A stretch of DNA of 63,743 bases, taken from Terriglobales bacterium. GTDB taxonomy: Bacteria; Acidobacteriota; Terriglobia; Terriglobales; SCQP01. Shown piece by piece: positions 3,844 to 49,040 of the stretch (its first letter is position 1; each line of letters starts with the position of its first letter). The position numbers and the translations under genes were made by a program. The stretch spans positions 1 to 63,743 of the forward strand of contig JANWJU010000108.1 of NCBI GenBank assembly GCA_025451775.1, in the 5' to 3' direction. The notes under the pieces were generated by a model that searched no databases, was not told the origin of the DNA, and saw only the letters and a program-made list of their open reading frames with translations.

Positions 3844-5016
3844 TTAGAAGTTCCGCACCTGCTCGCGGTAGGCGTTGGCGTTGCGCTGCAACTCGAGGAG
3901 CGAGTCGCCGCCAAATTTTTCCAGCGCCGCCTGGGCCAGCACCAGCGCCACCATGGCCTCGCCCACCACGCCGGCGGCGGGCACCACGCACACGTCACTG
4001 CGTTCGTAGGCGGCCTTGACCGGCTCGCGGGTCTCAAAGGCCACGCTCTCCAGCGGGCGCCGCAGGGTCGAGATGGGCTTGAGGAATCCGCGGACGATGA
4101 GCTCCTCGCCGTTGGTCATGCCGCCCTCCAGCCCGCCGGCGTGGTTGCCGGCGCGGGTGAAGCGATGCTCGCCGCGGTCGTAGCCGATGGGGTCCTGGGC
4201 CAGCGATCCGGACGTGGCGGCGGCGGCGACACCGGCGCCGATCTCGCACGCCTTCACCGCCTGGATCGAGCAGATGGCTTGCGCCAGCTTGCCGTCCAGA
4301 CGTTCATCCCAATTGGCGCAGGTGCCCAACCCCGGCGGCAGGCCCGCGGCGCGCACCTCGAAAACGCCGCCGATGGTGTCGCCGGTGCGCAGCACGCGAT
4401 CCACCTCCGCCTTCATGCGCTGCTCCGCCTCGGTATCGAGGCAATGAAGCAGGATCTCCTCCCGCGCCGCCAGTTGACGCAGCCCCTCCCAGGTCACCGG
4501 CACGGTTTCGGGCAGCACGGCCGCGCCTACCTGAATCACGTGGCTGAGCACCTCGATCCCCAACGCGCGCAACAACAACTTGGCCACCGCGCCCGCCGCC
4601 ACCCGCGCCGCCGTCTCGCGCGCGCTGGCGCGCTCCAGCACGTAGCGCGCCTCGGGGAAATTGAACTTGATGGCGCCCGCCAGATCGGCGTGGCCGGGAC
4701 GGGGACTCTTCACCGGCCGCGCCGCCTCGCCGGCGGGCGTGGCCACCGCCAGTGTCTGCTCCCAGTTCTTCCAGTCGTGGTTGGGGATAAGCACCGCGAT
4801 GGGAGCGCCAATCGTCGCTCCATTGCGCACCCCGGAGAGGAACTCCGGCGTGTCGCGCTCGATCTTCATGCGCCCCCCACGGCCGTAGCCCTGTTGCCGG
4901 CGCCATAACTCGTGGGCGACAAAAGCGGGGTCGATCGCCAGCCCAGCGGGCATGCCCGAGAGCAGCGCCAACAGGGCTTGGCCGTGGGATTCGCCGGCGG
5001 TGGAGAAACGTAGCAT
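3844..5016 (-). CDS. aroC: Chorismate synthase
   Basis: TAGESHG, PRPGHAD, RASARETA and RSDVC motifs. Confidence 0.98.
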   Translation of the reverse strand: MLRFSTAGESHGQALLALLSGMPAGLAIDPAFVAHELWRRQQGYGRGGRMKIERDTPEFLSGVRNGATIGAPIAVLIPNHDWKNWEQTLAVATPAGEAARPVKSPRPGHADLAGAIKFNFPEARYVLERASARETAARVAAGAVAKLLLRALGIEVLSHVIQVGAAVLPETVPVTWEGLRQLAAREEILLHCLDTEAEQRMKAEVDRVLRTGDTIGGVFEVRAAGLPPGLGTCANWDERLDGKLAQAICSIQAVKACEIGAGVAAAATSGSLAQDPIGYDRGEHRFTRAGNHAGGLEGGMTNGEELIVRGFLKPISTLRRPLESVAFETREPVKAAYERSDVCVVPAAGVVGEAMVALVLAQAALEKFGGDSLLELQRNANAYREQVRNF

Positions 5017-5039: not shown

Positions 5040-5080
5040 GTGGCTCGCCACTTTTCGCTGGGTCGCTCCCGCTGGTCGCT
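5040..5080. repeat. Repeat A copy 1 (intergenic), GTGGCTCGCCACTTTTCGCTGGGTCGCTCCCGCTGGTCGCT
   Basis: Identical to 33924-33964; one mismatch to 23874-23914. Confidence 0.9.
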
Positions 5081-5278
5081 TTGACGGAATGGCCGTCGGC
5101 GACGCGCCCGTAGCTAACCGGGCGGCTACCGATCCGATCCGGCTACAGCCGGGGGATGGTCACGCCGCTGGCGCACGAGCGGGGCTGAGGGGACCCCGCG
5201 ACGCGCCGTCGGCTCAGCGGGCGGCGAAGCCGGGCGCCCGCGTCAAATATGCTAGATTCTGGGCAGGAGGAAACGGAT

Positions 5279-6091
5279 TTGGCCACGGCGGCGCCCCCAC
5301 GGGGCGAGGAGGAGATCCAGTGGGGGTTCATCGGCTGGCTCAAGGGCCAGCTCGAGGGCCTGCAGGCCTACTCCCTGCTCACCGGCCGCACCTTCCGCAA
5401 CGTCCTGGCGCGCCCCTTCTACGGCGGCGACACCATGCTGCAGATGGACAGCCTCGGCGTGGGCTCGCTGCCGATCGTGCTCATGACCGGCTTCTTCACC
5501 GGCGCCGTCATGGCGCTGCAGTTGTCAGCCACGCTGGCGCAGTACGGGCAGATTCAGCGCACCGGGCAGCTCGTCGCCCTCTCCATCGTGCGCGAGCTGG
5601 GACCGGTGCTGACCGGCCTCATGGTGGCGGCGCGCAATGCCGCGGGCATGGCCAGCGAGCTGGGCTCGATGGTGGTGACCGAGCAGGTGGACGCCATGCG
5701 CGCCCTGGGCACCGATCCCATCAAGAAGCTGGCCACGCCGCGGCTGCTGGCCACCATCTCCATGACCTTTTCCCTCACCATCATCGCCGATCTGTGCGGC
5801 TTGATCGGCGGCTATCTCTACGCCATCCTGGCGTTGCGGCTGGACGGCCGCCAGTACTGGTACACCGCGATGCAGGCGCTGGGCGCCACCGACATGGCTC
5901 AGGGGCTGTTGAAACCGGTGGTGTTCGGCATCATCATCGCCACCGTGGCCTGCTACTTCGGCATGTCGGCGCGGGGTGGCACGCGGGGCGTGGGGCGCGC
6001 CACCACGCAAGCGGTGGTGTCGGCCTCGGTGCTCATTATTCTCACCGACTTCCTGTTGAGCCGGGTGCTGATCGGCTTCTTCGGGGCGTAA
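5279..6091 (+). CDS. mlaE: MlaE-family (Mce-associated) ABC permease
   Basis: RELGPVL, ELGSMVVTEQVDAMRALG and GVGRATTQAVV motifs; TTG start chosen because AGGAGG lies at 5265-5270 (ORF track start is 5249). Confidence 0.9.
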   Translation: MATAAPPRGEEEIQWGFIGWLKGQLEGLQAYSLLTGRTFRNVLARPFYGGDTMLQMDSLGVGSLPIVLMTGFFTGAVMALQLSATLAQYGQIQRTGQLVALSIVRELGPVLTGLMVAARNAAGMASELGSMVVTEQVDAMRALGTDPIKKLATPRLLATISMTFSLTIIADLCGLIGGYLYAILALRLDGRQYWYTAMQALGATDMAQGLLKPVVFGIIIATVACYFGMSARGGTRGVGRATTQAVVSASVLIILTDFLLSRVLIGFFGA

Positions 6092-12125: not shown

Positions 12126-12153
12126 GTGGCTCGCCACTGTTTGCCGGGCCGCT
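12126..12153. repeat. Degenerate partial copy of repeat A (intergenic)
   Basis: GTGGCTCGCCACTGTTTGCCGGGCCGCT versus GTGGCTCGCCACTTTTCGCTGGGTCGCT (24/28). Confidence 0.6.
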
Positions 12154-13007
12154 TAGACGGTCACGGTGACCCGCAAAAAGGCGGCGGGAATGAACGTGCC
12201 CGCCTGGCTCTTGTTATGCGCGTTGGCCAGTTCGACCAACTGCTCGTGGAGGAGCTGCGCCTTCCCGGCTTTCTGCGCCGCTTCCACGGCCACCATGGTG
12301 GGGCCGTAGAAACGTTCGAAGAGATCGATGAAATCCGCCGGGGTCTTCTCGGGATGGGCGAAGTAGTAGGTGTCTTTCACCATCGATATGCGTTCCCGTG
12401 CGACTCCGGCCCGGCCAAAACGCTCGATGATGTGGCTCTCCACCCCCCAGGTCATGGGGCTGACGAACCCTTCCGGCGGAGGCGGGGTGAACGCCGAGCT
12501 CACTTTAAGCAACTCCGAAACAAACGTCGGATCGCCGGGGATCCAGTTGCCCATCACCACGCGGCCGCCGGGTTTGGTAACCCGCACCATCTCCCTCGCC
12601 GCATCGAAGGGCCGGGGCGCAAACATTGCCCCGAACACGGAGAGGCTCAGATCAAAGGTATTGTCCTCGACCCCGAGCAGGTCGCAGGCATCGCCCTCGC
12701 AAAATTTCAGCCGGGTGAGGCCGGCTGCGGCGGCGCGCCGGTTGCCGGCCTCGACCATGCTGGGGGTGAGATCGATGCCGGTGACGTCGGCGCCCAGGCG
12801 GGCCAGCGGCAGCGCCGTGGTGCCATCGCCGCAGCCGAGATCCATCGCCCGCAGCGGCGGCACGATGCCGAGGGATTCAACGAGCGCTTCGCCGGATTGC
12901 CTCATAAACGCGGCGATTTCGGCAAAGTCGCCTTTTTGCCATAGCGCACGGTTGAGGTTAACAGTTGCCGCCGGGCCTGCGCTGGCTGCCATTGCCTTAG
13001 GGTGCAT
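12153..13007 (-). CDS. Class I SAM-dependent methyltransferase
   Basis: DLGCGDG, GDACDL and SVFGAMFAP motifs; GGAG RBS. Confidence 0.92.
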   Translation of the reverse strand: MHPKAMAASAGPAATVNLNRALWQKGDFAEIAAFMRQSGEALVESLGIVPPLRAMDLGCGDGTTALPLARLGADVTGIDLTPSMVEAGNRRAAAAGLTRLKFCEGDACDLLGVEDNTFDLSLSVFGAMFAPRPFDAAREMVRVTKPGGRVVMGNWIPGDPTFVSELLKVSSAFTPPPPEGFVSPMTWGVESHIIERFGRAGVARERISMVKDTYYFAHPEKTPADFIDLFERFYGPTMVAVEAAQKAGKAQLLHEQLVELANAHNKSQAGTFIPAAFLRVTVTV

Positions 13008-21800: not shown

Positions 21801-22681
21801 AGCCGGCGCTGGCGGCCATCGAGCTCGGTTTTGTAGCCGCGGTAGCGCTCGGCCTTGGCCGACTGCCGCTTCAGCGACGCGGTTTGCCGCGTCACCTCCT
21901 CGAAGATGTCATTCACGCGCGAGAGGTTCAGGCGCGCCGCTTCCAGGCGCGATTCCGCCGCCCGCCGCCGCACCTTGTATTTGCTGATGCCGGCCGCCTC
22001 CTCGATCACGGCGCGCCGGTCGTAGGGACGGGAGCTGAGGATTTGCCCGATGCGCCCCTGTTCGATGATGGCGTAGGACTCCGGCCCCAGCCCCGTGCCC
22101 AGGAAAATGTCCTGAATGTCCCGCAGCCGGCAGGGGCGCCCATTCAGCAGGTACTCGCTCTCCCCGCTGCGGTAGAGGCGGCGCGTCACCACGATCTCGC
22201 CCCGGCGGTTATGAGCGATAAACCGGCGGCGCTTGCGGATGCTCAGCACCACTTGGCCAGCCGCCTGTTCGGCAGCGGGCGCGGGGACCGCTTCGGCCCC
22301 ATCGCCATCTTCATCCCAGCCGGCGTCCATCCCTTCCTCCGCGGCCTCGGCCGGCGGTGCGTCATTGGAGGCATCCGGGAAAGTGCCGGGAGCGGCTTCC
22401 ACCTCGTACTGTTCGGGATCGACCAAGGTCAAGCTGACCTCGGCCATGCCCGTCGCGGGGCGGTCGCGCGTCCCGGCAAAGATCACGTCCTCCATGCGGG
22501 TGCCGCGCAGCGACTTCGCCGATTGCTCGCCCAGCACCCAGCCGATGGCGTCGGCGAGGTTGGATTTGCCGCACCCGTTGGGGCCCACGACCCCCACCAC
22601 GCCCGTGCCCGGAAACAGCAGCTCGGTGCGCTCACAGAACGATTTGAACCCTTGCAGTTGGAGCTTTTTCAGCTTGAGCAC
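18896..22681 (-). CDS. smc: Chromosome segregation protein SMC
   Basis: GFKSF, GPNGCGKSN, long coiled coils, hinge, LSGGEK and LDEVDA motifs. Confidence 0.97.
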   Translation of the reverse strand: MLKLKKLQLQGFKSFCERTELLFPGTGVVGVVGPNGCGKSNLADAIGWVLGEQSAKSLRGTRMEDVIFAGTRDRPATGMAEVSLTLVDPEQYEVEAAPGTFPDASNDAPPAEAAEEGMDAGWDEDGDGAEAVPAPAAEQAAGQVVLSIRKRRRFIAHNRRGEIVVTRRLYRSGESEYLLNGRPCRLRDIQDIFLGTGLGPESYAIIEQGRIGQILSSRPYDRRAVIEEAAGISKYKVRRRAAESRLEAARLNLSRVNDIFEEVTRQTASLKRQSAKAERYRGYKTELDGRQRRLARGRAQAIETAQTGLREQHAAAAQAAQAAHDAIAAQEGARAQHATQCTALELELRRLTGESGRLQRERDSSAQQITFHEQQSAELERRGADLATEQTRLQQQQAALEPELEQARRDQDTAGEAAAGAAERFAACRAQHQAAQAQVAEAERGQAAARQQSLTLLRQAAQLENQIGQGETLIAGFERQLQRLAEDETTARGELDRNGVRRGQLDIEFQDQQSASAALAARSQELERRVAELIASEAQERKQGEQSRTRLAELSARRRSLEEIVAHHGYSSEAVKGLFGRRDAASFQPLGVLGEFLDVDAPYDQVLEQFLHDEMNFVVVPSWDQAGEGVGMLRSQEQGRATFLVHGDGHTTAPAAAAAPEPAAEPGLIPLLGEVKALNGFRRGLADILPKLRNAYLAADAAQARRLAVQYPHAFFLTAGGECYHNLTVSGGAGAGSGPLSLKRELRDLARREAEEQAALTRLDQRQIVLGRDRDQAERELAQTRNQRHEAEKRLLTSTQAAQQVEGELKRAEAMLQRAVLERERAQAEQQQTSQRLEAARHEAAAASAEAARLQQRESDGVAAVAAAAATRDTAAQAMSAAQTEAARIEERARAATAAWERLQRQQRDIATRIEAMVAEAQVLQARQRELEAQRQILHASLERLHAELARATAAQASAEAALAAARVQVQQLENELAAGREAWDQKRQLQNECEVALARLEADLEHLRQSCREELGCELAQLAELDGAEPAPVAGELPALEAEVRELRQRIDNLGPVNMMALEEYEEARQRHEFLDTQRQDLLNAIADTQKAIQEMDTISRQKFQEAFEQINIYFQEMFQVLFGGGQGFLKMSEAEPDARGDSGVDIVAQPPGKKLQNALLLSGGEKAMTAMALLLAVFRYQPSPFCLLDEVDAPMDEANVARFSDMVKRMGAHTQFILITHNKRTMEAAPTLYGVTMPQAGISRLVSVQVESAPRAVAS

Positions 22682-22761
22682 GGCCCGGCTCCTTTGCCCT
22701 TAGCGTGGGCGAACACTCACCGGAAGTGTAGCCGTGATGTACCTGGGAATCAAGCCTATAA

Positions 22762-22807
22762 ACCATATATATAGGGCTTCGATGCCAATAGCCCCCATAT
22801 ATTGGGC
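22762..22807. promoter_or_regulatory. Tandem NrdR-box-like palindromes upstream of smc
   Basis: ACCATATATATAGGGC (22762-22777) and CCCCCATATATTGGGC (22792-22807), 30 bp apart; resemble acaCwAtATaTwGtgt. Confidence 0.55.
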
Positions 22808-22812
22808 TGGAT

Positions 22813-23658
22813 CTAGGGCCGTTCCAGCAGGGCGAGGATGGGGGCGGAGTTGGCCGTCTGGGTGTCTGCAGGCTGCGGCTGGTCGGTGTGGAAGTAGAAC
22901 TTGTAGGCTTGGATCCAATTGCGGGCAATGGCTTGTTGCGCGGTGGCCAGCGGCAGGTTCCCCTGGCACACCGAACGTTGCAGGTACTGCTCGAGCTGGT
23001 CCTTGACGTAGGAGTTCCAGGTCGCGTGGGCGCGGGGTTCGGGCCAGAGGTTGCGGATGTCGGCGGTCCCGCCCAGGCCGGGCGTGATCAGGTAATCGAC
23101 CTCGAAGTTGGCGGGGTCGGCATGATGGAGGCCATACTCGCGCAGGACGCGTCGTTGGAGGCTGGGGGCCACTGGACGGTTGATGGGCACATCCTCGCGG
23201 CTGCAGAGGGCGCCGAGCGCGACCGGTTGGGCCGCGCCCGGGGTCAGGTGCGGATCGGGGAGCAGGCCTCCATCAACCTGCACCAGCGTGGCGCGGTGGC
23301 GGGGCAGCCCAACGGACGCCACGAGCAGCGCCAGCGCGAACGCCGCCACCCATTGCCAGTGCCAGCGCGCGGGCGCGGGCTGGAGCGCGGCGACGGCAAG
23401 GCGGGCCTGGAGGCGGCAGCGCGCTTCGTTGTGATCCACGGGAAAATCGGCGAGGTGACCGGCCAGGCCAGGGGTGAGTGGCATCCCCTCCTGGGTTTCG
23501 ACGGCGTAGACGTTGAGTAACTCCCTGATGCGCAGCAGCTCGGCCCGGCATGAAGCGCAGCGGTCCAGATGGGCGAGCACGCGCGCCGACTGGCGCGGCG
23601 GCAGGTCGTCATCGCTCAACCGTATCAGCTGGCGCGGGGAGGGATGACCTAAACGCAT
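22813..23658 (-). CDS. zf-HC2 anti-sigma factor with TM helix and C-terminal HNH-like domain
   Basis: H...HLDRCASC; hydrophobic WVAAFALALLVASV; LPDPHLTPG...EVDYLITPGLGG...RNLWPEP...KDQLE...VC. Confidence 0.75.
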   Translation of the reverse strand: MRLGHPSPRQLIRLSDDDLPPRQSARVLAHLDRCASCRAELLRIRELLNVYAVETQEGMPLTPGLAGHLADFPVDHNEARCRLQARLAVAALQPAPARWHWQWVAAFALALLVASVGLPRHRATLVQVDGGLLPDPHLTPGAAQPVALGALCSREDVPINRPVAPSLQRRVLREYGLHHADPANFEVDYLITPGLGGTADIRNLWPEPRAHATWNSYVKDQLEQYLQRSVCQGNLPLATAQQAIARNWIQAYKFYFHTDQPQPADTQTANSAPILALLERP

Positions 23659-23995
23659 GACGGATATCCTCGGCTGTCAGCGGGCCGGCGCCACCGCTCG
23701 CGCGGTAGTGGAGACCCTGGGCGCGGGAAAATCCAACCCTGCAAGGTATTCCGCGGCCGCCTCAGGCGTAAATGGCGGTAAAGCTGCAGAAACACCGTTT
23801 GGGTGATCTCCTCGCCGTCCTGAATCGACAAACCCAGCGACAGAATATAGCACAGCAGCCCGCGCCGGTGTTGGTGGCTCGCCACTTTTCGCTTGGTCGC
23901 TCCCGCTGGTCGCTAACCTCACTCACAATCTCTCCGGGGGCGTGGCCGGTGACCCGTGCCGCCGTAAGGACGGCTGCTGCTTCCAAATTGCTCAT
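23655..23995 (-). pseudogene. Decayed ECF sigma-70 factor (repeat insertion, frameshifts, deletions)
   Basis: Region-2 fragment QHRRGLLCYILSLGLSIQDGEEITQTVFLQLYRHL...LQGWIF is out of frame with the ATG; a region-4 remnant RAQGLHYR (23702-23725) follows after another frameshift. Confidence 0.75.
23874..23914. repeat. Repeat A copy 2 (inside sigma pseudogene)
   Basis: 40/41 identical to 5040-5080. Confidence 0.9.
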
Positions 23996-24103
23996 TCGGC
24001 CTTAGTATATTCCCGGGGTTGCATTTCTGTTCAGGCTCCTCGTGGCAAAGTTCAGGCGCAAAATGCCTGAACGTGGGCGGGGGTGGAAGAATATTTACTT
24101 GTA

Positions 24104-26443
24104 ATGACCAAGAAATCCGGTTGGCCGGCGTTAGTTCTTGTGCTCGCTTTTTTGCTCCCGCTCCCGGTCCAGCTGGCGGCGCAGGCCAATAGCGGGGATC
24201 TGCGGCTCAGGGTGACCGACCCCACCGGGCTGGCGCTGCCCGCCACGGTGGTAGTCTCCAGCCAAGCGAACCAGTACCAGAAAACCCTGACCACCACGCC
24301 AGAGGGGACGCTGGACGTTCCCGGGCTGCCCTACGGCGTGTATGCGGTCGCCATCACCCACGCTGGGTTCGCGCCGTGGGTGCAGGCGGTCGACATCCGC
24401 ACCTCGACCCCAACCCAAGTCGCCGTGCAGCTCAAGCTGGCGGATTCATCACAAGCGGTCACCGTCACCGCGCCCAAGACGTTGATCAACCCCGAGCAAG
24501 CCGGCGCCGTCGCCCGCATCGGCTCGATCACGCTCCAGAGCCGGCTGGGCGCGCTCCCCGGCCGCTCGCTGCAGGCGCTCATCAACTCCCAGCCGGGCTG
24601 GCTGTACGAGGGCAACGCCGTGCTGCATCCGCGCGGCTCCGAGTACCAGACTCAGTTCGTCATTGACGGCGTCCCCATCCAGGGCAACCGTTCGCCCAGC
24701 TTTGGCCCGGAACTGGAGGCCGCTGATGTCTCCTCGATGAGCATTTATACAGCCGGCATCCCCGCCGAATACGGCCGCAAGCTGGGCGGCGTGGTCGAGA
24801 TCAACACCATCGACGACACGCACCCTGGCTTTCACGGCAAGATGAGCCTCTCCGGCGGCAGCTTCGATACCCGGGAAGCGTTTTTTGAAGGCGAGTACAC
24901 AACCGGCAAAAACACGGTGGGCTTCAGCACCGATGGTTCCGGCACCGCGCACTACCTGAACCCAGTGGTTCCGCAAAACTACACCAACCGCGGCACCACG
25001 GGGGATTTCTCCCTCGATTTCGCCCGCCGCATCTCCCCCAACAACCGGGTGACTCTCAGCCTGCGCCACGAACTCTCGCGTTTCGATCAGCCCAACGAAC
25101 AGGTGCAGCAGGCCGCCGGCCAGCATCAGAACGCCGACAACTTCGACACCATGGGCATTGCGGCCTACGAGCATGTCTTCTCGGCCCACATGGTGGGCGC
25201 CGTGCACGCCATGTGGCGTGACGGCAGCAACGATTTCTTCTCCAATCCGCAATCGACGCCGGTCATGATCACGCAGCACAACGCCCAGCGCGAGGGCTAT
25301 GCCAACGCCTCGCTGACCTTCGATCTGGGGCGCCAGGAGTGGATGGTGGGCGGCGAGACCGACAACACGTTTCTGCATGAAAACCTCGCCTATCACATCA
25401 CCGACCCCAGCCAGTACGACCCCGGCACGCCCGTGCTCTTTGCCTTTGCCGGCCGGCACCCGGATCTGGAGCAATCCGCCTACGCGCAGGATCTGATCCA
25501 CCTGGGCAACTGGACCGTCAACACCGGCTTGCGCTGGGACCACTACAACCTTCTCGTCAACCGTCAAGCGGTGAGCCCGCGGCTCTCGATCGCGCGCTAT
25601 TTCCCCGGCGCCGATATGACGCTGCACTTCTCCTACGACCGCATTTTTCAGACGCCGTCGTCGGATAACATCCTGCTCTCCGCCTCGACCCAGGTGGAAT
25701 CGATCGCTCCCAGCGCCTTTTTCCGGCTTCCGGTCGAGCCCTCGCTGGGCAACTATTACGAAGGTGGAATGAGCAAGGGGTTGTTCGGCACGATGCGGCT
25801 CAACCTGAACTACTACCGGCGCGCCGAGAACAACTTCGCCGATGACAACCAGCTCAACAACACCTCGATCAGTTTCCCCATCGCTTTTGACCGGGCGGTG
25901 GTCTACGGCGCCGAGGCCCAACTCACCCTGCCCGCCGGCCGCCGCTGGTCCGGTGATCTGAGCTACTCGTATATGGTGGGCACGACGTGGCTGCCGGTGA
26001 CGGGCGGACTTTTTCTGGGCGCCGACGCCTCCGGCCTCAACACCGCCAGCAGCGAGTTTCCCGACACTCAGGACCAGCGCAATACCTTCCGCGGGCGGCT
26101 GCGCTATCAGTTGACGCCCCGCCTCTGGCTGGCCGGCGGAGCGGAGTACAACTCCGGCCTGCCGTTTAAATTCAATGGCGATGCCACCACGGCGCTGGCG
26201 GAGTATGGCCCGCAGGTGATCAGCCGGGTCAACTTCGACCGGGGACGCCTGCATCCCACCATGCTGGTCAACGCGTCCTTCGGCGCCCAACTCTGGTCCA
26301 ACGACCGCTACATGGTGAACCTGCAGGCCGACGGGCACAACCTCACCAACGTGCTCGACCTCATCGACTTCGGAGGCCTGTTCTCGGGCAACGCCATTGG
26401 CCCCTCGCGCAGCGTCTCCGTGCGCCTGGAAACCACTTTTTAA
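24104..26443 (+). CDS. TonB-dependent receptor (same family as 7869-10109)
   Basis: Signal peptide, RVTDPTGLALP, LHPRGS...IDGVP, DQRNT, C-terminal SRSVSVRLETTF. Confidence 0.92.
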   Translation: MTKKSGWPALVLVLAFLLPLPVQLAAQANSGDLRLRVTDPTGLALPATVVVSSQANQYQKTLTTTPEGTLDVPGLPYGVYAVAITHAGFAPWVQAVDIRTSTPTQVAVQLKLADSSQAVTVTAPKTLINPEQAGAVARIGSITLQSRLGALPGRSLQALINSQPGWLYEGNAVLHPRGSEYQTQFVIDGVPIQGNRSPSFGPELEAADVSSMSIYTAGIPAEYGRKLGGVVEINTIDDTHPGFHGKMSLSGGSFDTREAFFEGEYTTGKNTVGFSTDGSGTAHYLNPVVPQNYTNRGTTGDFSLDFARRISPNNRVTLSLRHELSRFDQPNEQVQQAAGQHQNADNFDTMGIAAYEHVFSAHMVGAVHAMWRDGSNDFFSNPQSTPVMITQHNAQREGYANASLTFDLGRQEWMVGGETDNTFLHENLAYHITDPSQYDPGTPVLFAFAGRHPDLEQSAYAQDLIHLGNWTVNTGLRWDHYNLLVNRQAVSPRLSIARYFPGADMTLHFSYDRIFQTPSSDNILLSASTQVESIAPSAFFRLPVEPSLGNYYEGGMSKGLFGTMRLNLNYYRRAENNFADDNQLNNTSISFPIAFDRAVVYGAEAQLTLPAGRRWSGDLSYSYMVGTTWLPVTGGLFLGADASGLNTASSEFPDTQDQRNTFRGRLRYQLTPRLWLAGGAEYNSGLPFKFNGDATTALAEYGPQVISRVNFDRGRLHPTMLVNASFGAQLWSNDRYMVNLQADGHNLTNVLDLIDFGGLFSGNAIGPSRSVSVRLETTF

Positions 26444-29400
26444 CCGCCCCACTCCAGCCAGGCGCCGGTAAGGGGAAAGTAAAGGCCGCAGCGCCACGGG
26501 CGCGGCTCGGCATCGAGAGCGGCCACCAGCTGGGCGTAGGCGGCGAGCTGAGGTTGATAGCGCTCGCGCTCGGCCTCGAGCCAAGCGGCGGCCTGGGCGC
26601 CAGGGCCGGGTTCCGTGATTTTGTAATCGATGATCCAGTGTGTGCCGTCCGCGGCAATGAAGCTGCGGTCGATGACGCGATGCGCCGCGCCGCCGGGCGT
26701 GGCGCCGGCGATCGCCCACTCACAACGTGCCCCGGGGTGGCGGTCGAGGATCCAGCGGCCGCGGGCGTCGCCGAGGGTGTGGCGCAGCGCGCGCTCGGCG
26801 CGTTCTCGCGCCAGGGGCAGGTCGGCGGGCAGCACGCCGGCGGAGCGGAGCTGATGATCCAGTTGCGCCGCGCTCCAACTCCGAACGCCGCTCTCGGCCA
26901 GGCGCCGCAGCAGGGCGTGCACGGCGGTGCCGGTGCCCCGCTCCCAGCCCCCGGGCGCCAGGGCGCCCTGCATATTCTGGAGATTCTGGAGACCTACGGT
27001 GGCGGCCGCGGGCGCCGGCGCCACGGCTGCGGCTGGGACCACGCGCACGCGCCGCAGGAGGGGAAACCCGGCCGCCGGCGCCAGGGTGGAGCTGAGCGCC
27101 TCATGCGCGGCGAGTCCAGCCTGGCTGCGATGCTGCTGGAACTGCCGCTCGAACTCGGGTTGAAGCGTCGCCCACACGCACGCCAACGGTGAGCCCCCAT
27201 CCGGCGCCCGCAGTTGGCCGGTGCTGGGATGAAGCGGCATGGCCGCCACGAGATGCAGCCGTTGCCGCGCCCGCGTCATGCCGACGTAGAGCAAGCGCCG
27301 CTGCTCCTGCCGCTTTTTCTCCTGATCGCGTTGCTTGATCAGTCCGTAAACGGTGCGCTCCTCCGTGCCCCTGGCCGGTTGCGGCGCCATGAGCCATGCG
27401 AAATCGCCCTCCGCGGGGAACTCCGCCCAGCGCAGCAGACCATCCTTATCCGGGCGCAGTCTCCTCCCCAAGCCCGGCAGGATCACCGCGTCAAATTCCA
27501 ACCCTTTGGCTTGGTGCACGGTCATGATCTGAACCCTCCCCTGCGGCGCATGCTCATCGGGGGCAAAAAGGCCATCGAGTGCGGCCCCGAGCGCCGCCGC
27601 GTCCCACCCGGAAGCGTGATCCAAGCGTTCAAAAAATGCCGCCGCGCCGGCGGGATGGGGGGTGCAGCCGGCGCCATCCAACTCGCGCCAGCACCACTCC
27701 ACCAAGGCGCGCGGGGACCAGCGCCCGCGCTCTTGCGCCGCCGCCTCCAGCACAGTCATGGCTCGTGCCGCGCGCGCGCCGCCATCCCCGGATAGGTGGG
27801 CACGCCGCTGCCGCCACAAGTCTCTAACAGCGGTCTCCCGGTCACCGCCGCAGAGCGCGTGCAAATCGGCCAGCGTGAGGCCGCACCAGGGCGCCCGCAG
27901 CACGGCCAGCCACGCCACCCGGTCCGCCGGATCGTGGAGCGCCCGAGTGAGCGCCATCAAGTCCAGCACCACCGGGCTGTCTGCCAGCTTCATCAGCTTG
28001 CTGCCCGAGTAGGCAACCCCAGCCCGCCGGAGTGCGTGGTGGATGGGCGCCACATGCGTGCGCGAGTGCACCAGGATGGCGACTGTGCCGGCTCCGGCGG
28101 CCATCTCCTGTTGCGCCAGGCGCGCGACCTCGACCGCTTCGGCCCGTGGGTTTCGGCTGGCAATGGCGACGACGTCGGCTTCGCCACCGCTGTTGACGCC
28201 CTCACTGGCGATCTCGAAATGGCCCCCGACCCAAGCGGCCAGCGCCCGGCCGGAGCGGAAGTTCCGGCGCAGTTGCAGGCACTGCAGCGGCTGCCCGCCC
28301 AAGTGTCCGCGCACCTCGGCCTGCTCGAACAGTTCCACCTCGGCGTCGCGGAATCCAAAGATGGATTGCATCGGGTCGCCTACGAGAAACAGCGTGCGGC
28401 CGTCGCCCGCGGTCCAATCCGAAATGAGGCCGCAGATCAAGCCGTACTGGGCGCGGGAGGTGTCCTGGAATTCGTCGATGAAGATGTGCCGCAGCTGGGC
28501 ATCGAGGCCATAGGCAAGGGCGCTGGGAGCTTCGAGCGTGCCGAGCGCCGCCCGGGCGGCGAGGGTGATCTCGGTGAAATCACACTCCCCTTGTTCAGCA
28601 AACACGACGCGCAGTTCGGCCGCGGCCACCGGCAACAGGCGTACCAAGGTCGCGACGATGTTCCATTCGTACTCGGAATAGGCGGGCTCGGGCAGCGACC
28701 GCGTGCGATGCAGCGCCGCGCAGGCCGCGTCGCCGAGGCCAGGGTACGGCCCTTTTTTGCGTGCGGTCCCTTCCTTCGTGAGCAGTCGTGCGGCCACGGC
28801 TTGCCAGCCCGCGACATCCAGTCCGGCCACGGTGACCGGGACGCCTTCGGCATGGAGTTTCTGGCGCACATCGTCGAGCTGGGCTTGCAGCACTTGGCGC
28901 AAGTTGGCCTCAAACTGTTCCTGGCTGGCGCCGCTCAAGACCAGCGGCAGCCAGGCATCGCGCCGGGCGAGCAATTCGGCCAGCAGCGTCTCCGCCGCCT
29001 CCAGATCGCCGTTCAGATGGCGCAGCAGGGCGCGCGCCGCCGCGCCGCCCGGGCTGGGGTCATCGCCGGCAAGATCGATGCGGGACATGGTCGCGCGGCT
29101 GGCGGCGCGGTAGAGCCGATCGGCGTCCTCGGTGGGGCGCGGCGCCGGGCCCAGGCGGGTCAGCCACGGCATCCGTCCCGCCAGCTTCAGCGCCAGGCTG
29201 TCGAGGGTCATGATCTGCAACCGCGAGGGCGAACGCGCGAGTTGCCAGTTGTGCCGGGCGTCCTGGTCGCGTGCCCCTCTCGCCAGCTCCCACGTCAGCC
29301 GATCATGCGCGGCTGCGGGGGGCGCGCCGGCGGCGTTGGCGATCGCTTGCAGCACCCGCTGCCGCATCTCGCCGGCGGCTTTGCGCGTGAACGTCAGCGC

Positions 29401-29580
29401 CAGAATCGCTTCCGGGGCCTCGACCTCCGCCAGCAGCCGCAAGAAGCGCTGGACGAGGAGCCCGGTCTTCCCCGATCCGGCGGGCGCGCGCACCAGCACC
29501 GAACCGGCGGCATGGAGCGCGGCATGCCGCGCTTGCGCGTCATCGTCATGCCGCGCTGGGGCGGCGGCCTCAGGCGTCAT
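26440..29580 (-). CDS. UvrD-like helicase with C-terminal nuclease (AddA-like)
   Basis: APAGSGKT, DEFQDTS, VGDPMQSIF, TVHQAKGLEFD, RLLYVGMTRAR and WIIDYK motifs. Confidence 0.92.
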   Translation of the reverse strand: MTPEAAAPARHDDDAQARHAALHAAGSVLVRAPAGSGKTGLLVQRFLRLLAEVEAPEAILALTFTRKAAGEMRQRVLQAIANAAGAPPAAAHDRLTWELARGARDQDARHNWQLARSPSRLQIMTLDSLALKLAGRMPWLTRLGPAPRPTEDADRLYRAASRATMSRIDLAGDDPSPGGAAARALLRHLNGDLEAAETLLAELLARRDAWLPLVLSGASQEQFEANLRQVLQAQLDDVRQKLHAEGVPVTVAGLDVAGWQAVAARLLTKEGTARKKGPYPGLGDAACAALHRTRSLPEPAYSEYEWNIVATLVRLLPVAAAELRVVFAEQGECDFTEITLAARAALGTLEAPSALAYGLDAQLRHIFIDEFQDTSRAQYGLICGLISDWTAGDGRTLFLVGDPMQSIFGFRDAEVELFEQAEVRGHLGGQPLQCLQLRRNFRSGRALAAWVGGHFEIASEGVNSGGEADVVAIASRNPRAEAVEVARLAQQEMAAGAGTVAILVHSRTHVAPIHHALRRAGVAYSGSKLMKLADSPVVLDLMALTRALHDPADRVAWLAVLRAPWCGLTLADLHALCGGDRETAVRDLWRQRRAHLSGDGGARAARAMTVLEAAAQERGRWSPRALVEWCWRELDGAGCTPHPAGAAAFFERLDHASGWDAAALGAALDGLFAPDEHAPQGRVQIMTVHQAKGLEFDAVILPGLGRRLRPDKDGLLRWAEFPAEGDFAWLMAPQPARGTEERTVYGLIKQRDQEKKRQEQRRLLYVGMTRARQRLHLVAAMPLHPSTGQLRAPDGGSPLACVWATLQPEFERQFQQHRSQAGLAAHEALSSTLAPAAGFPLLRRVRVVPAAAVAPAPAAATVGLQNLQNMQGALAPGGWERGTGTAVHALLRRLAESGVRSWSAAQLDHQLRSAGVLPADLPLARERAERALRHTLGDARGRWILDRHPGARCEWAIAGATPGGAAHRVIDRSFIAADGTHWIIDYKITEPGPGAQAAAWLEAERERYQPQLAAYAQLVAALDAEPRPWRCGLYFPLTGAWLEWGG

Positions 29581-32209
29581 CGCCCACCTCCATAAACTCC
29601 GCGGGCGCGTGGTCCATCTCCCACTCGCCGATCCGGCACAACATGGGCAGGTCGCAATGTTTGCAGGTTTCGCGGCGAACCTTCGGGTCGATCTCGGCCC
29701 CACCCGCCAGATACGCCGCGGCGAGATCGAGCAACGCCTGTTCCCACGCCGGCAGCAAGCCGGGCGTGCAATCTGCCTTTTTCAACGCCACATCGCCGAA
29801 GCGGAGTTGCACGAAGGCAATCCCCCCAATGCTGTCCCGCGCGGCATCGGTGACCGCGTAGACCGGTAATTGCGGCTCCTCGGGCCGGGGCATGTCCCAC
29901 AGGCCTGGCGACACCTTGCCCGATTTGTAGTCCAGCAGCACACGGCCGCCGCCGTCGAGTTGATCAATCCGGTCAAGGCGCAGCTTGAGCTTGAGGCCGC
30001 CCCAATCGAGTTGGCGCTCATGTTCCAGAGCCTCGACGTGAAAGGCCGGACGCGTGAGTTCGACCTCCAGCCACGCCGTGACCAAATCGGTGAGCCGGTG
30101 CATTTCGGCGTCGGCCAATCCGGGGCGGGCGTGCAGCAACGGTTCCGCGCCGGTGACCGCCGCCGCGGCCTGGGCGGCGAGGCCGCGGCGTTCGTCCGCG
30201 CTCATGGCCAGGAGCCGGGCTTGGCTGCCAAGTTGCTCGAACACGCGCTGCAAGACGGCGTGCAGCAGCGTCCCGCGGGTGGTGTGGGTGAGGCCCGCAG
30301 GCGGCGCGTCCGCCGCTTCGGCGTGCAAGCGCCGATGCACGAAGGCGCGGAACGGGCAGGCCGCTTGCTCTTTAAAGATGCCGGTGCCACCCTCGGCGTC
30401 CGCGCCCGTGGCTGGGGGAGCGTGCGTGTCGTCAAGGGCGGCTATGTCAGCCGCCTGTCGCCGCGCGTCCCTATTTTCCATGGGGTGTTCCACCGGCGTC
30501 CAGGCGATCGGCTCCCAGGGCAGCAGCGGACTGGGTTGCAGCGGGCGCTCGCCATCGTTGGCGGCGTAGCTGATGGCGATGGCATCGGCGCTGCGGCGCA
30601 GCCGATCGAGCTGGCGCTGGGCAAAATCGGATGTCTGCGCGGGCGTGGCGTGGGGCAGGCCAAGCTCGGCCTGCCAGCGGCGCGGCAGAAACGGATGCGG
30701 CGCTGCCGGCGCGGGCACGGCGGTGTCGTCCAAGCCGGTGATCCAAAGATGGTCGAACTCCAGTCCGGCGGCCTCGAGCCAGCCCATAATCTGTACACCG
30801 CCTCCAGCCTGTTCGGGCTGAAACAGCCGCCCGGCGGCGACGGCGCGCAGGTTGCGGAGCGCGGCATCGGCGGTGACCGGGCCGCGGGCATTGACGGCAT
30901 CGAGGCTGGCGCAGCCGGTAAGCGCCTGCTGCCAGACCTCGCAGGCTTGATGTTCAGCGCTGGAGAGACCGCGCTCGCCCGGCCATCCCATGGCCGCGAG
31001 CGACGCCGCAAAGCGCTGGGTCCAGCTTGCCAACGGCGCTGTGCCAGGACCGCGGAGCGCGTCGCGGCCGGCTGCGAGCGCCCGCGCCAGCCCCGGGCAG
31101 AAGCGCGCGGTCTCCGCGCCGCCCAGCGCTTCAGCGGCGATCTGCGACCGTCCTTGGCGCGCCCAAGTGGGGCGCCGCCGCGCGCGGGGGCCGGCTTCCT
31201 GCTCCGCACCCGCCAGAAACGGCGAGCTGACGATGGCGGCCGCGCGCGCGGGATCGAGCCAGGCGCCGGCGGGGGTGAGCGCCCATTCGAGCAACTCCAA
31301 GGCCGCCGCCGCCACCGGCCAAGCCGTGAGCGGCCGGCCCAGCGAGAGGTGAAACGCAGGCGGCGCTGCCGCCCACGGCGCCCGCTCGGGGTGAAACTCG
31401 GCCGCGAATGCGTGGGCGGCCAGGTCGCGGATGCCGTCCAGCCCCGGCGCCACCATTGCGATGCTCTGGCTCGGATCCGCCATCCACAATTGATGCGCCC
31501 AGCGCGCCGCCGCCGCCATCTCCTGCGCCGCATCGGGGGCCTGGCAGGCCTGCATGAGGGAGCCGCGGCGCTCGGGCTGCGGCCAGCGGTTGAGGGCCAT
31601 GCCCGCCGCTGCCATCGCCTCCATCAGCTCTCGCTGCCGCGGCGGTGCGACCTCGTCGAAACCCGCCATCCAGACCGTCTTGGCTATCGACGCTTCTCCG
31701 CCTCGCAGCAGCCCGGCCACGGCTTGGGGCAATTCGGCGGCGGTGATCCAGCCACCGCGGCGGCAACGTTCGCGCACCAGTTCCACCCAGTGGTGAAACG
31801 CCGCCGTCTCCTGGTTCTGCCCCCAGGCCGCGTCGTTCCAGGGCAGCGCCCACGCGTGCGCCAGTTCCCAAGCCGCGGCCGCGGCCGCCGCCGTGGCTTC
31901 CACATCCAGCAGCGCGGTGTCCATCCTGCCCGGCCCGGCGGGGCCGGCGGGGCCGCGGACTGCCTCATCCCATAGCCACCGCTCCTGCGCTGGATTGAGC
32001 AGCACGCGGTCGCCGTGCTCGCGCCACACCTGCTCCAGCCAGGCCGAGAGCGGCACGATCACCGGCGCCTCCCAGGCGCGCCCGCCGGCCTGCTGCTGGC
32101 GCTCATCGTAGGCGCGGCGCAGCTCCCGGGCCAGCCGGGCTTGGGCGGTGAGCAGCGTGGCGCCGGCGGCGAGCGAAGCCCAGGCCGTCTCAATGCTGGT
32201 GGGGTTCAC
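29570..32209 (-). CDS. AddB-like DNA repair protein with PD-(D/E)XK nuclease and Fe-S cysteines
   Basis: ACPFRAF, RLDRIDQ...LDYKSG, QLPVYA and CKHCDLPMLC; overlaps the helicase gene. Confidence 0.9.
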   Translation of the reverse strand: MNPTSIETAWASLAAGATLLTAQARLARELRRAYDERQQQAGGRAWEAPVIVPLSAWLEQVWREHGDRVLLNPAQERWLWDEAVRGPAGPAGPGRMDTALLDVEATAAAAAAAWELAHAWALPWNDAAWGQNQETAAFHHWVELVRERCRRGGWITAAELPQAVAGLLRGGEASIAKTVWMAGFDEVAPPRQRELMEAMAAAGMALNRWPQPERRGSLMQACQAPDAAQEMAAAARWAHQLWMADPSQSIAMVAPGLDGIRDLAAHAFAAEFHPERAPWAAAPPAFHLSLGRPLTAWPVAAAALELLEWALTPAGAWLDPARAAAIVSSPFLAGAEQEAGPRARRRPTWARQGRSQIAAEALGGAETARFCPGLARALAAGRDALRGPGTAPLASWTQRFAASLAAMGWPGERGLSSAEHQACEVWQQALTGCASLDAVNARGPVTADAALRNLRAVAAGRLFQPEQAGGGVQIMGWLEAAGLEFDHLWITGLDDTAVPAPAAPHPFLPRRWQAELGLPHATPAQTSDFAQRQLDRLRRSADAIAISYAANDGERPLQPSPLLPWEPIAWTPVEHPMENRDARRQAADIAALDDTHAPPATGADAEGGTGIFKEQAACPFRAFVHRRLHAEAADAPPAGLTHTTRGTLLHAVLQRVFEQLGSQARLLAMSADERRGLAAQAAAAVTGAEPLLHARPGLADAEMHRLTDLVTAWLEVELTRPAFHVEALEHERQLDWGGLKLKLRLDRIDQLDGGGRVLLDYKSGKVSPGLWDMPRPEEPQLPVYAVTDAARDSIGGIAFVQLRFGDVALKKADCTPGLLPAWEQALLDLAAAYLAGGAEIDPKVRRETCKHCDLPMLCRIGEWEMDHAPAEFMEVGDDA

Positions 32210-34374: not shown

Positions 34375-34408
34375 CGCTCCAGTCTATCGCTCCAGTCCCG
34401 CTCCAGTC
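34375..34408. repeat. Three copies of CGCTCCAGTC upstream of ptrB
   Basis: Copies at 34375, 34388 and 34399; contains a minus-strand TAGACT 6 nt before the ptrB ATG. Confidence 0.6.
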
Positions 34409-34448
34409 CCGCCTCCCGCCGGCCCTCTGGCGGCGGGGTGCCCAGCGG

Positions 34449-35384
34449 CTAGCCGCGGCCGGGCTTGGCGGCGTCTTTGATGAGATCGGGGGGCGCGAGG
34501 GAGGGCGCGTTGCCCAGTTGCGAGGCGATGTGGGTGGCCTCCTCGACGGCGCGCGCCAGCACGGAGCGGATCTTGCCGTCTTCCAGCATGAGCAGGCCGC
34601 CGATGGTGCAGCCCGCGGGGGTGGTGACGTCGTCGCGCAGCGCCGCCGGATGGCGGCCCGTCTGCTGCACCATTTTGCCGGCGCCCACCGCCGTCTGCGC
34701 CACCAGCGTCAGCGCCAGATCACGCGGCAAGCCCACGCGCACGGCGGCGTCGGCAAACGACTCCATGATCAGGTACTGGTACGCCGGGCCGCTGCCGCTC
34801 AGCGCGGTGATGGCGTTGAAATGGTGCTCCTCGGTGGCGACGCAGCGGCCCACGGCGGTAAACACGCGCTCGGCGCGGGCGAGATGTTCGGGCATCGCCT
34901 GGCGGCCCGGGCAGATCACGGTCATGCCTTCACGCACCACGCAGGGGGTGTTGGGCATGGCGCGGACCCAGGGATTCCGGGTGCCGAGCGCTGCCTCGAG
35001 CTGCGCCGTGCTCACGCCTGCCATGATCGAGATCAGCAGTGTGTCCGGGCGCAGGCCGCCGGCGCGCAGGGCGGCAATGACCTGCGCCGCCTGCTTGGGC
35101 TTGACGCAGACTAGAATCATGCCCGTCTGCGGCAGCCGCCCGCCAAAATCCTGGACCACGGGCACGCCCAGCTCCGCCGCCGCCGCGGCGCAACTGCTTT
35201 GGGATCGGGCCGCGGCCCAGGCGTCCTCGCGCGCAATGGCGCCGCTCTCGAGCAGTCCGCGCAGCAGTGTGCGGCCCATGACGCCGGCGCCAATGACGCC
35301 CAGGGTTTCGCCCTTGGAGACGAGCGGAAGCGCGGGGGCGTGGCGTGGGTCCGGAGTCTGAGCTTTTGAATCCATTGCATCCAT
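34449..35384 (-). CDS. proC: Pyrroline-5-carboxylate reductase
   Basis: IGAGVMG, RAMPNTP, TALSGSGPAY and VTTPAGCT motifs; start may be 35375. Confidence 0.95.
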   Translation of the reverse strand: MDAMDSKAQTPDPRHAPALPLVSKGETLGVIGAGVMGRTLLRGLLESGAIAREDAWAAARSQSSCAAAAAELGVPVVQDFGGRLPQTGMILVCVKPKQAAQVIAALRAGGLRPDTLLISIMAGVSTAQLEAALGTRNPWVRAMPNTPCVVREGMTVICPGRQAMPEHLARAERVFTAVGRCVATEEHHFNAITALSGSGPAYQYLIMESFADAAVRVGLPRDLALTLVAQTAVGAGKMVQQTGRHPAALRDDVTTPAGCTIGGLLMLEDGKIRSVLARAVEEATHIASQLGNAPSLAPPDLIKDAAKPGRG

Positions 35385-35445
35385 GGCGAGGTTGGCCTCC
35401 ATCCTAAATGGTACAATCAGCCTGAGCATTTCAGGAGCCGTCCTT

Positions 35446-35994
35446 ATGACTTTCCGCTTCCGGCGCGTGCTCGTGATGGCCGCCGGGTTGGTTTTAGCCG
35501 CTACCTTGACCGAGGCGCAAGCCCCCGCCGCCGCCCCGGCGCCTGCTGCTTCCACCGGCGCTGCCGCCGCTCCCGCGGCCGCTTCCGCGCCCGGCTCGGA
35601 GTTCCCGGCTGGCCCCGGACGGGACACATTTATTCGCGTCTGTTCCGCCTGCCACGCCCCCGAGCAGGTCATCGGCCATGGCCAGGACGCCAGCGGCTGG
35701 GCCGATACCATCAATCAGATGATTCAAAACGGCGCTCAGGGTTCGGACCAGGATTTCGGTGACATCGTCCAGTACCTGTCCACCCACGTCGGCCCCATGC
35801 CCTCCCAGATCAATGTGAATACCGTCACCTCGCTCGATCTGCAGAACTGGCTGGGGTTCACCCCGCAGCTGGCTGATGCGGTCATCGCCTACCGCGCCGC
35901 CCATGGCAAGTTCACCTCCCTCGCCGATCTGGAAAAGGTTCCCGGCGTCGATGCCAGCGCGCTCGCCAACTTCAAAAATGCGTTGACGTTCTGA
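35446..35994 (+). CDS. Secreted c-type cytochrome fused to a ComEA-like helix-hairpin-helix domain
   Basis: Signal peptide, CSACH heme motif, distal Met (QMIQNGA); INVNT...AVIAYRAAHGKFTSLADLEKVPGV; AGGAG RBS. Confidence 0.85.
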   Translation: MTFRFRRVLVMAAGLVLAATLTEAQAPAAAPAPAASTGAAAAPAAASAPGSEFPAGPGRDTFIRVCSACHAPEQVIGHGQDASGWADTINQMIQNGAQGSDQDFGDIVQYLSTHVGPMPSQINVNTVTSLDLQNWLGFTPQLADAVIAYRAAHGKFTSLADLEKVPGVDASALANFKNALTF

Positions 35995-48883: not shown

Positions 48884-48959
48884 GCCGACGTAGCTCAGTT
48901 GGTAGAGCGGCTGATTCGTAATCAGCAGGTCTCCGGTTCAAGCCCGGACGTCGGCTCCA
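48884..48959 (+). tRNA. tRNA-Thr (CGT)
   Basis: GCCGACGTAGCTCAGTTGGTAGAGCGGCTGATT-CGT-AATCAGCAGGTCTCCGGTTCAAGCCCGGACGTCGGCTCCA; TAGAAT at 48859. Confidence 0.97.
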
Positions 48960-49007: not shown

Positions 49008-49040
49008 CGCTCTGCTCGTGGCATCTCCATGCTGCCTCCA
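49008..49040. repeat. Repeat B copy 2 (intergenic)
   Basis: 32/33 identical to 33999-34031. Confidence 0.85.

Follow-up and report, generated by a model that had tools for sequence, protein, structure and literature searches.

A probable non-autonomous mobile DNA element of 108 bp found in spacers and in frame in genes of an uncultured Terriglobales family

A sequence of 41 bp recurs in the window, that is, in the whole stretch of 63,743 nucleotides analysed here (contig C108 of the source assembly), both between genes and inside reading frames. What kind of repeat is it, how far does it extend, how could it have spread, and how do genes tolerate it? The source assembly is a Terriglobales metagenome-assembled genome (MAG) of 2.86 Mb in 161 contigs, with 67% GC and 82% completeness. 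The nearest named ptrB loci are those of 'Terriglobales bacterium' MAGs (64-67% identity), and the sequencing runs that contain the stretch are soil metagenomes. Gene contexts were taken from an ad hoc codon-usage gene caller, which yielded 2561 genes and a coding fraction of 91%.

An exact search located the 41-mer at 5040-5080 and 33924-33964 without mismatch and at 23874-23914 with one. These positions agree with a sequence-only reading of this DNA, as do the contexts that it had assigned to them: intergenic at 5040, in frame in a ptrB-like ORF at 33924 and within a broken sigma gene at 23874. The 41-mer was obtained in none of 100 dinucleotide shuffles. As described earlier, it contains the hairpin GTGGC-TC-GCCAC, a doubled GGTCGCT and, on the reverse strand, the open frame ATSGSDPAKSGEP. 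The unit of the repeat, taken to be 41 bp, had to be revised: homology extends over 67 further bases in most copies and has a sharp right end, which makes the unit 108 bp. The full copy in the window is that at 33924-34031, and the copies at 5040 and 23874 are the left module alone. Profile matches do exist at 12126 and 52054, where degenerate copies had been placed, but both are weak, and a right-end fragment at 49008-49040 had been overlooked. The features in the window are listed below.

33924 to 34031, plus strand: full-length 108-bp element (model positions 1-108, profile E 6.9e-34)
32206 to 34374, minus strand: the gene that hosts this copy, a 722-aa ORF resembling oligopeptidase B (ptrB)
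5040 to 5083, plus strand: left-module-only copy in the divergent aroC/mlaE spacer (model positions 1-44, E 2e-10)
3844 to 5016, minus strand: chorismate synthase gene (aroC), flanking the 5040 copy
5249 to 6091, plus strand: MlaE permease gene, flanking the 5040 copy
23874 to 23915, plus strand: left-module-only copy (model positions 1-42, one mismatch in the 41-mer, E 8.7e-10)
49008 to 49040, plus strand: right-end fragment, 52 bp downstream of a tRNA gene (model positions 76-108, profile E 3.8e-5)
48884 to 48956: the tRNA gene upstream of that fragment
52030 to 52088, minus strand: possible eroded remnant, weak (model positions 3-58, E 0.0034, 13.3 bits)
12126 to 12154, plus strand: possible eroded left end, weak, intergenic (model positions 1-29, E 0.005, 12.7 bits)

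The copy at 23874 makes a frameshift within the degraded N-terminal remnant of an ECF-type sigma gene. The sigma identity comes from a weak Sigma70_r2 match (E 0.0094, 16.2 bits; the Pfam cut-off is 24), and a zf-HC2 anti-sigma ORF lies downstream. The possible remnant at 52030-52088 falls in the C-terminal tail of an ABC ATPase (ORF 51298-52251, ABC_tran domain at residues 23-164); at 12126-12154 the first 13 bases are identical to the element. No Rfam family was found in the window at gathering thresholds, and the element itself drew a chance-level match (E 1.1).

The sequence-only reading had extrapolated from the window to a high-copy, dispersed and non-autonomous element, and the rest of the genome bears this out. 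The source assembly holds 18 exact 41-mers and gave 151 blastn matches at E<=1e-3. A search profile built from 32 copies returned 161 matches, which were merged into 153 loci, of which 91 are full-length, 36 left-only, 14 right-only and 12 partial in other ways, 14.7 kb in total. Truncated copies had retained the 5′ end in 36 cases and the 3′ end in 14. Four anchor pairs (C85, C99:24425, C115 and C155) were dropped as non-elements, and the length is exactly 108 bp in 46 of 98 true anchor-delimited copies. Longer copies carry optional small hairpin modules at two fixed places (around positions 33-35 and 73), so that lengths of, for example, 126, 128, 144 and 162 bp occur. Two subfamilies that differ by paired changes in the 3′ stem are present in this genome. 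Median identity of the 108-bp copies is 93.5% to the majority sequence and 89% between pairs.

The same boundaries were seen in contigs of four soil metagenome runs, which break exactly at 33923/33924 and at 34031; loose contig ends also occur at the internal break points of the optional modules. In these four runs contig depth in the bin of the element was 12 to 117 times that of the neighbouring bins. No joint that skips exactly 33924-34031 was present among those listed for contigs of the four runs over 22500-35500, contigs being assemblies that drop rare variants. Recent activity, as had been proposed, is plausible in view of the near-identical copies and three species-specific inserts, but an empty allele did not appear among the listed soil-metagenome joints.

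The order of parts is a 5-bp hairpin at the very 5′ end, an unpaired core and a stem-loop of about 13 bp near the 3′ end. The structure obtained with RNAalifold and then extended comprises a terminal hairpin of 5 bp, a short helix in the middle and, on the 3′ side, a stem of 5+8 bp; the block that varies least, CGCTCCCG-N-TGGTCG, remains unpaired. Paired cells amounted to 91.4%, against 34-50% with slid partners. Compensatory changes were found in three pairs (2:12, UA to CG; 72:106, GC to AU; and 77:97). Covariation lends moderate support to two predicted hairpins, the events being few, the sequences related and the structure derived from the same data. Only the GTGG strand can form the conserved G-U pairs.

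Neither end of the element is the reverse complement of the other, so terminal inverted repeats are absent. Direct repeats of 2-8 bp next to the element numbered 3, 3, 1, 0, 1 and 0 in 82 copies, with 3.7 to 0 expected, and 5-8-mers shared between the 25-bp flanks were at the level of the shuffled control in 97 copies. A target-site duplication was rejected on these counts, neither kind of repeat being commoner than in shuffled pairs. The fourth base beyond the 3′ end is G in 77/82 copies while the three bases between vary, and the same G four beyond the 3′ end is found in copies read from three related genomes (G014, G015 and G023). Position -1 is G in 46/82 and A in 18/82 copies. The 5′ flank showed no conserved target tetranucleotide. 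In 20 of 133 copies a stop triplet ends 0-2 bases ahead of the 5′ end; for the reverse-complement triplets the count is 12. A stop codon as target was also considered and rejected, this excess being too weak.

The comparison with Rickettsia palindromic elements (RPEs), which insert in frame into proteins, was made earlier from the window; it applies to the whole genome. Eighteen in-gene copies were verified and their ORFs stay open. In all 18 the length is divisible by three (108 bp in 13, 126 in one, 144 in three and 162 in one), whereas this is so in 47 of the 80 copies outside genes. Four frames are used: 15 copies are antisense to the host gene (10 in the frame opening with EAAW, 4 in that opening with GGSLEMP and 1 in a third frame) and the three sense copies use the frame opening with VARH. 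The majority sequence is open in five of its six frames. Survival in coding sequence can be put down to these two properties, the length in multiples of three and the five open frames.

Pfam domains flank the insert on both sides in a 6PGL/Glucosamine_iso protein, a Ser/Thr kinase, a GT4 glycosyltransferase, a histidine kinase (where it sits between HisKA_3 and HATPase_c) and a maltokinase-like APH protein. It forms a C-terminal extension in AccC, an acyl-CoA dehydrogenase, a PIN protein and a methyltransferase, and on contig C61 it joins a GT2 domain and a Wzx-type flippase within one ORF of 1030 aa. What the element contributes in coding sequence is either a loop, about 36 residues long and predicted as disordered, or a new tail at the C-terminus. 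Some of the copies scored as in-gene are C-terminal extensions or may precede the true start codon.

The insertions are borne out by empty sites: orthologs were compared for three genes, and the insert is absent from every ortholog found in 3/3 (the ptrB, 6PGL-like and maltokinase-like genes). In ptrB, 33924-34031 is antisense to the gene and read in frame as 36 residues (aa 115-151 including two split codons), in a variable loop of the N-terminal propeller part. Orthologs were present in 15/15 congeners at 67-73% identity, with residues ~1-111 and ~146-720 matching in abutting DNA; a clean gap of 35-36 residues was seen in all 15 and in 4 order-level genomes. The 6PGL-like gene has a match at E<=1e-20 in 9/15 congeners, and the gap is present in 7/7 alignments that span the site. 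In the maltokinase-like gene, where the element is in sense, residues 336-371 are absent in 15/15 congeners; residues ~20-335 and ~371-489 match, abutting in 14/15 and on separate contigs in G011. Unpublished genomes were among those compared: G003, G004, G005, G011 and G013 for ptrB and the maltokinase-like gene, and G003, G004 and G013 for the 6PGL-like gene. With the published congeners alone the answer is unchanged. An AlphaFold model of the ptrB product (20-row alignment) had a mean pLDDT of 81.8 and a pTM of 0.82. Within it, residues 111-150 are predicted as mostly coil between strands 107-110 and 154-157, with 10-residue blocks at pLDDT 42-54, although the gapped alignment itself lowers confidence there.

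To what extent is the element shared with relatives? A DNA search gave matches in 18/41 genomes, the source genome included, namely in 14/15 congeners and in genus g4; the order-level genomes had no match in this search except one weak one. A covariance model detected the element in 19/28 family genomes, 18 besides the source genome (g1 13/15, g4 4/4 and g7 1/2), and none was found with it in g2, g3, g5 and g6. The element family is confined to one uncultured family of the Terriglobales (Acidobacteriota). Covariance matches per genome ranged from 0 in the congeners G001 and G012 (93% and 88% complete) through 3 in G009, 85 in the source genome, 94 in G004 and 110 in G023 to at least 136 in G014, a genome of 20 contigs and 98% completeness. 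The figures for G004, G023 and G041 come from unpublished genomes, and the consensus genomes G011, G013 and G023 are likewise unpublished.

Every species has its own consensus, and ten representative copies are all 108 bp (G000, G009, G011, G023), 111 bp (G014, G013, G015, G006) or 114 bp (G002, G010) long. In the alignment these length differences are several separate indels of 1-2 bases in different columns that always sum to a multiple of three. By our own estimate, chance would yield such lengths roughly once in 80 tries, about four independent lineages being assumed. The multiple-of-three length is probably best explained by selection among copies and lineages: only copies of such length survive in the coding 91% of the genome, and masters of this length would therefore have more safe landing sites. 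Amplification was separate in each species, and different sites were entered in different species.

With respect to genes, the 153 loci divide into 114 between genes, 29 within called genes and 10 across a gene end. Copies are tolerated chiefly in spacers. Convergent spacers are enriched, holding 27/65 full-length intergenic copies as compared with 275/1872 spacers genome-wide. In tandem spacers the two orientations of a copy relative to the genes occur 15 and 8 times.

Along the chromosome the copies are polar in orientation. In the source genome 122/147 same-contig pairs are co-oriented (permutation mean 73, maximum 101; 0/2000 permutations reach 122), and pairs 20-100 kb apart have the same orientation in 37/37 cases. 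Gene orientation is not the cause, since around copies the median fraction of co-oriented coding sequence is 0.49. The polarity was also followed in G014 over about 800 kb (contigs C14 and C4 and parts of C10 and C16). On C14, 6/6 copies to the left of ~200 kb are on the minus strand and 11/12 to the right on the plus strand, and cumulative GC skew is lowest at 215 kb. GC3 skew in G014 is strand-specific, with opposite signs for plus- and minus-strand genes. The GTGG strand lies on the locally G-rich strand in 45/54 copies, orientation flipping with the gene-strand-corrected GC3 skew, and on C4 it tracks each of several skew switches. The switch on C14 is not at dnaA, which is on another contig. 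Several such switches imply rearrangements or assembly joins, and the assignment to the leading strand is indirect. In the source genome orientation did not follow local GC3 skew overall (58 vs 61; 11 vs 3 only where |R|>=0.15), raw skew in a ±10-kb window (72 vs 70) or contig-level GC3 skew (14 vs 12 contigs).

Could these features mean that the sequence is kept by its host, as a terminator, an mRNA stabiliser or a polar chromosomal motif, with orientation arising from selection and coding copies as by-products? Conserved, covarying hairpins with an invariant core, the enrichment in convergent spacers and a chromosome-scale polarity like that of Chi or KOPS motifs would all be expected of such a function. 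However, the zero-copy congeners G001 and G012 manage without the element, no Rfam family corresponds to it, and its orientation relative to neighbouring genes in tandem spacers is weak. A Chi-like core was tried and rejected: outside the elements GNTGGTCG is unskewed, with 88 occurrences on the G-rich strand and 120 on the opposite one over 560 kb of G014, while composition-matched octamers are 58% on the G-rich strand. The frameshifting insertion at 23874 and the copies inside enzyme domains fit selfish spread better, and a host function is improbable as the explanation.

A different proposal, suggested by the sequence-only reading, was a GTRG-tagged REP (REPIN) family mobilised by a RAYT transposase. 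The element does start with GTGG and a short GC-rich hairpin; Acidobacteria carry Y1 transposases flanked by repeat families, according to the excerpted text of PMC3733652 and PMC6006769; and the absence of terminal inverted repeats and target-site duplications, together with the preference for convergent spacers, is REP-like. A RAYT/IS200-like gene flanked by copies was nevertheless not found. The Y1 family (PF01797) gave 0 matches in the source genome, 82% complete, and 0 in G014, despite 98% completeness and at least 136 copies; it is present in 3/16 genomes of the genus, and the three Y1 loci have no copy adjoining. The unit, at 108-114 bp and with two dissimilar hairpins besides its conserved, unpaired core, is not a palindrome of 20-40 bp, and GTGG lies within the stem rather than as a 5′ tag outside it. 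No opposed pair of copies flanks a transposase-like gene, and neighbours are mostly co-oriented (122/147 pairs). A REP/RAYT system is decidedly improbable.

It is more improbable still that the element is a classical MITE, derived by deletion from a DDE insertion sequence and mobilised by cut-and-paste. MITEs typically have such a size, copy number and patchy distribution, and insertion sequences are under-sampled in MAGs; but its ends are not inverted repeats of each other, direct repeats and flank-shared k-mers remain at the shuffled level, the DDE families PF01609, PF00665 and PF13358 are absent from G014, and cut-and-paste by a DDE enzyme would not of itself make the copies strand-polar along the chromosome. 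An assembly, adapter or binning artefact, to which the breaking of contigs at copies and the 9 loci within 300 bp of a contig end might point, is scarcely credible when 144/153 loci are contig-internal, copies vary in sequence and carry optional modules, diverged versions occur in 18 other genomes, independent soil runs contain the element and long ORFs stay open through the in-gene copies.

Candidates for the moving enzyme were sought more widely. In agreement with the sequence-only reading, no transposase is present in the window, and likewise none adjoins any copy examined. The Y2 family of IS91 (PF04986) was found in 3/28 family genomes, one of them without copies of the element, and no copy adjoins the Y2 loci. 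G014 gave no match to PF01548 (IS110), PF07282 (TnpB), PF01609 (DDE_Tnp_1), PF00665 (rve), PF13358 (DDE_3) or PF00078 (reverse transcriptase). Thus none of the transposases tried as movers (Y1, Y2, IS110, TnpB, DDE_Tnp_1, rve, DDE_3 and reverse transcriptase) tracks the element. Multi-copy IS contigs are often missing from MAGs, and for this reason the absence of enzymes is weak evidence either way; it is still notable in a 98%-complete genome with at least 136 copies. An autonomous parent was also rejected: none of the left-only copies has a right-only copy within the next 8 kb, and the eleven opposed-copy pairs enclose only ordinary genes, with no transposase-like gene among them. A viral carrier was rejected too, as viral contigs gave 0 matches to a degenerate 41-base pattern.

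Taken together, the 41-mer appears to be the 5′ module of a small non-autonomous mobile DNA element, 108 bp long here and 108, 111 or 114 bp in related species, and we put the probability of this explanation as a whole at about 0.8. The repeat is sharply bounded and structured, it is non-autonomous, and its entries into enzymes preserve the codons. Our verdict is that this is a real, RPE-like, transposase-orphan element family and not a REP/RAYT system.

How would such an element move? The leading candidate, whose chances we rate at slightly under even, is single-strand, replication-fork-coupled cut-or-copy and paste of the GTGG strand by an enzyme of HUH type. The GTGG strand would be moved as a single strand at the replication fork, as in IS200/IS605, REP and IS91, by an enzyme acting in trans. 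Transfer of this kind is suggested by the lack of terminal inverted repeats and target-site duplications, the one-strand hairpins, the polarity and the 36 vs 14 truncations that keep the 5′ end. A fuller version, in which the fork-coupled single-strand element is moved by an enzyme beyond the known Y1/Y2 families and selection keeps its length in multiples of three through indels summing to three, enabling colonisation of coding sequence, is tentative and in its entirety rather unlikely. If true, a free-living soil bacterium would have a permanent source of novel protein loops, C-terminal tails and fused genes.

Selfish DNA that inserts in frame has mostly been regarded as a peculiarity of Rickettsia, and it is now found in an abundant free-living soil lineage, on clean evidence with empty sites in up to 15 congeneric genomes per gene tested. 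The multiple-of-three length, the polarity and the range of copy number make the movement of orphan elements testable, and the range from 0 to at least 136 copies among close relatives allows phylogenetic profiling for the missing enzyme. For annotation, the inserts add low-confidence loops of 36-54 residues to enzymes in MAG catalogues; the element also inflates or fuses ORFs, the GT2-flippase ORF being an example, and breaks short-read assemblies. No paper that links MITE, REP or RPE-type repeats to Acidobacteria was present in the limited collection of literature searched.

Among known systems, the orphan element resembles the RPEs in its behaviour. Both are dispersed, palindrome-bearing repeats of about 100-150 bp that occur in spacers and in frame in unrelated housekeeping genes, the added peptide is tolerated by the fold, and neither has an associated transposase, as far as the excerpts of PMC10969869 and PMC3733652 describe RPEs. 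Nearly half of the RPEs first reported (Ogata et al. 2000) were in ORFs, according to the excerpt of PMC10969869, whereas ~12-19% of loci are in genes here. The hosts also differ, RPEs being found in an obligate intracellular alphaproteobacterium and the present element in a free-living soil acidobacterium. Several frames and both orientations are used here, and the multiple-of-three length across species and the chromosome polarity are features that appear in neither of the RPE descriptions compared (the excerpts of PMC10969869 and PMC3733652). Homology of the element to RPE sequences is very unlikely because of the host phylum and the 67% GC; the likeness is one of behaviour and not of membership.

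With REP/REPIN sequences it shares GC-rich hairpins, the lack of terminal inverted repeats and target-site duplications, a preference for gene 3′ ends and occasional intragenic copies (Di Nocera et al. 2013, PMC3733652, as excerpted), as well as the 5′ tetranucleotide GTGG and a plausible single-strand mechanism. It differs in being three to five times longer, in having two unlike hairpins with an unpaired core and no inverted doublets, and in that no RAYT or REPtron was found.

Elements of the IS200/IS605 type likewise have subterminal one-strand hairpins without terminal inverted repeats or target-site duplications (PMC6006769, in the part available), and they move by single-strand 'peel and paste' at the replication fork (PMC5027513 and PMC6006769, in the parts available). 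Their orientation is tied to the direction of replication; the corresponding skew proxy here is 45/54 in G014 and 58 vs 61 in the source genome, where orientation nevertheless clusters strongly. No TnpA (Y1; source genome and G014) or TnpB (G014) was found, Y1 occurring in 3/16 genus genomes, and in place of a target tetranucleotide there is a G/A preference at -1 and a G four beyond the 3′ end.

IS91, a rolling-circle element of the Y2 HUH type, also lacks terminal inverted repeats and target-site duplications, and truncations that keep one end, here 36 vs 14, recall its one-ended transposition. It differs in that Y2_Tnp is present in only 3/28 family genomes, one of them copy-free, with no element end adjoining. 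The repeat in the window belongs to a new family of in-frame-capable orphan mobile elements, ordinary-looking but unusually well evidenced.

Two insertions of the element, a 108-bp mobile repeat with optional hairpin modules, are described first; both lie outside the window, in the genome to which it belongs (G000).

G000:C61:7737-10829 (locus L115), single ORF of 1030 aa, GT2 glycosyltransferase and flippase connected by the element.
G000:C52:22694-22801 and its flanks, insertion in the 6PGL-like gene.

In the first of these, the GT2 glycosyltransferase occupies residues 79-354 and the Wzx/Polysacc_synt flippase residues 515-950, and an in-frame element of 144 bp (residues 456-504) bridges both domains. 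This ORF may be a gene fusion created by the element.

At the 6PGL-like gene, two 12-mers that are alike at 11 of 12 bases lie on either side of the insertion, one of them 3 bases off the element, and the excess over orthologs is 38 residues, not 36. Comparison of flanks revealed no repeats like this pair at the other element copies. At ptrB, the empty site reads ATGGAGGC in several element-free orthologs (loci L019, L020, L023, L025 and L026), in agreement with the element's own terminal bases in this genome (window 34025-34040). The match was not seen in the closest relatives. The agreement could be due to chance or to target microhomology.

The spacer between aroC and mlaE that holds the left-module-only copy (window 5040-5083) also houses a second dispersed repeat (5161-5243), which spans about 80 bp, contains GC-rich hairpins and is unrelated to the 108-bp element. 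Its initial bases are similar to one of that element's optional hairpin modules. This repeat has 90 matches in the own genome (blastn, E<=1e-3), where tandem dimers are a frequent arrangement. Elsewhere in the window (22813-24000), a putative ECF sigma gene has apparently decayed via frameshifts besides the 41-base insert; its anti-sigma partner, a zf-HC2 ORF of 281 aa, is intact.

Strand-specific GC3 skew was very strong on G000:C81 (81.8 kb, R = 0.33), and all 8 element copies on this contig are in one orientation. In the congener G014, the skew changes sign several times inside single contigs (C4, C14), and across 40-160 kb of C14 it attains values of -0.27 to -0.37. This pattern suggests inversions, assembly joins or unusual replication.

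On the G014 contigs C4, C10, C14 and C16 (loci L198-L237), GNTGGTGG was counted outside elements 296 times on the G-rich strand versus 109 on the other; octamers composition-matched to GCTGGTCG served as control, with 58% on the G-rich strand. GNTGGTGG is a candidate for a Chi-like polar motif of these bacteria.
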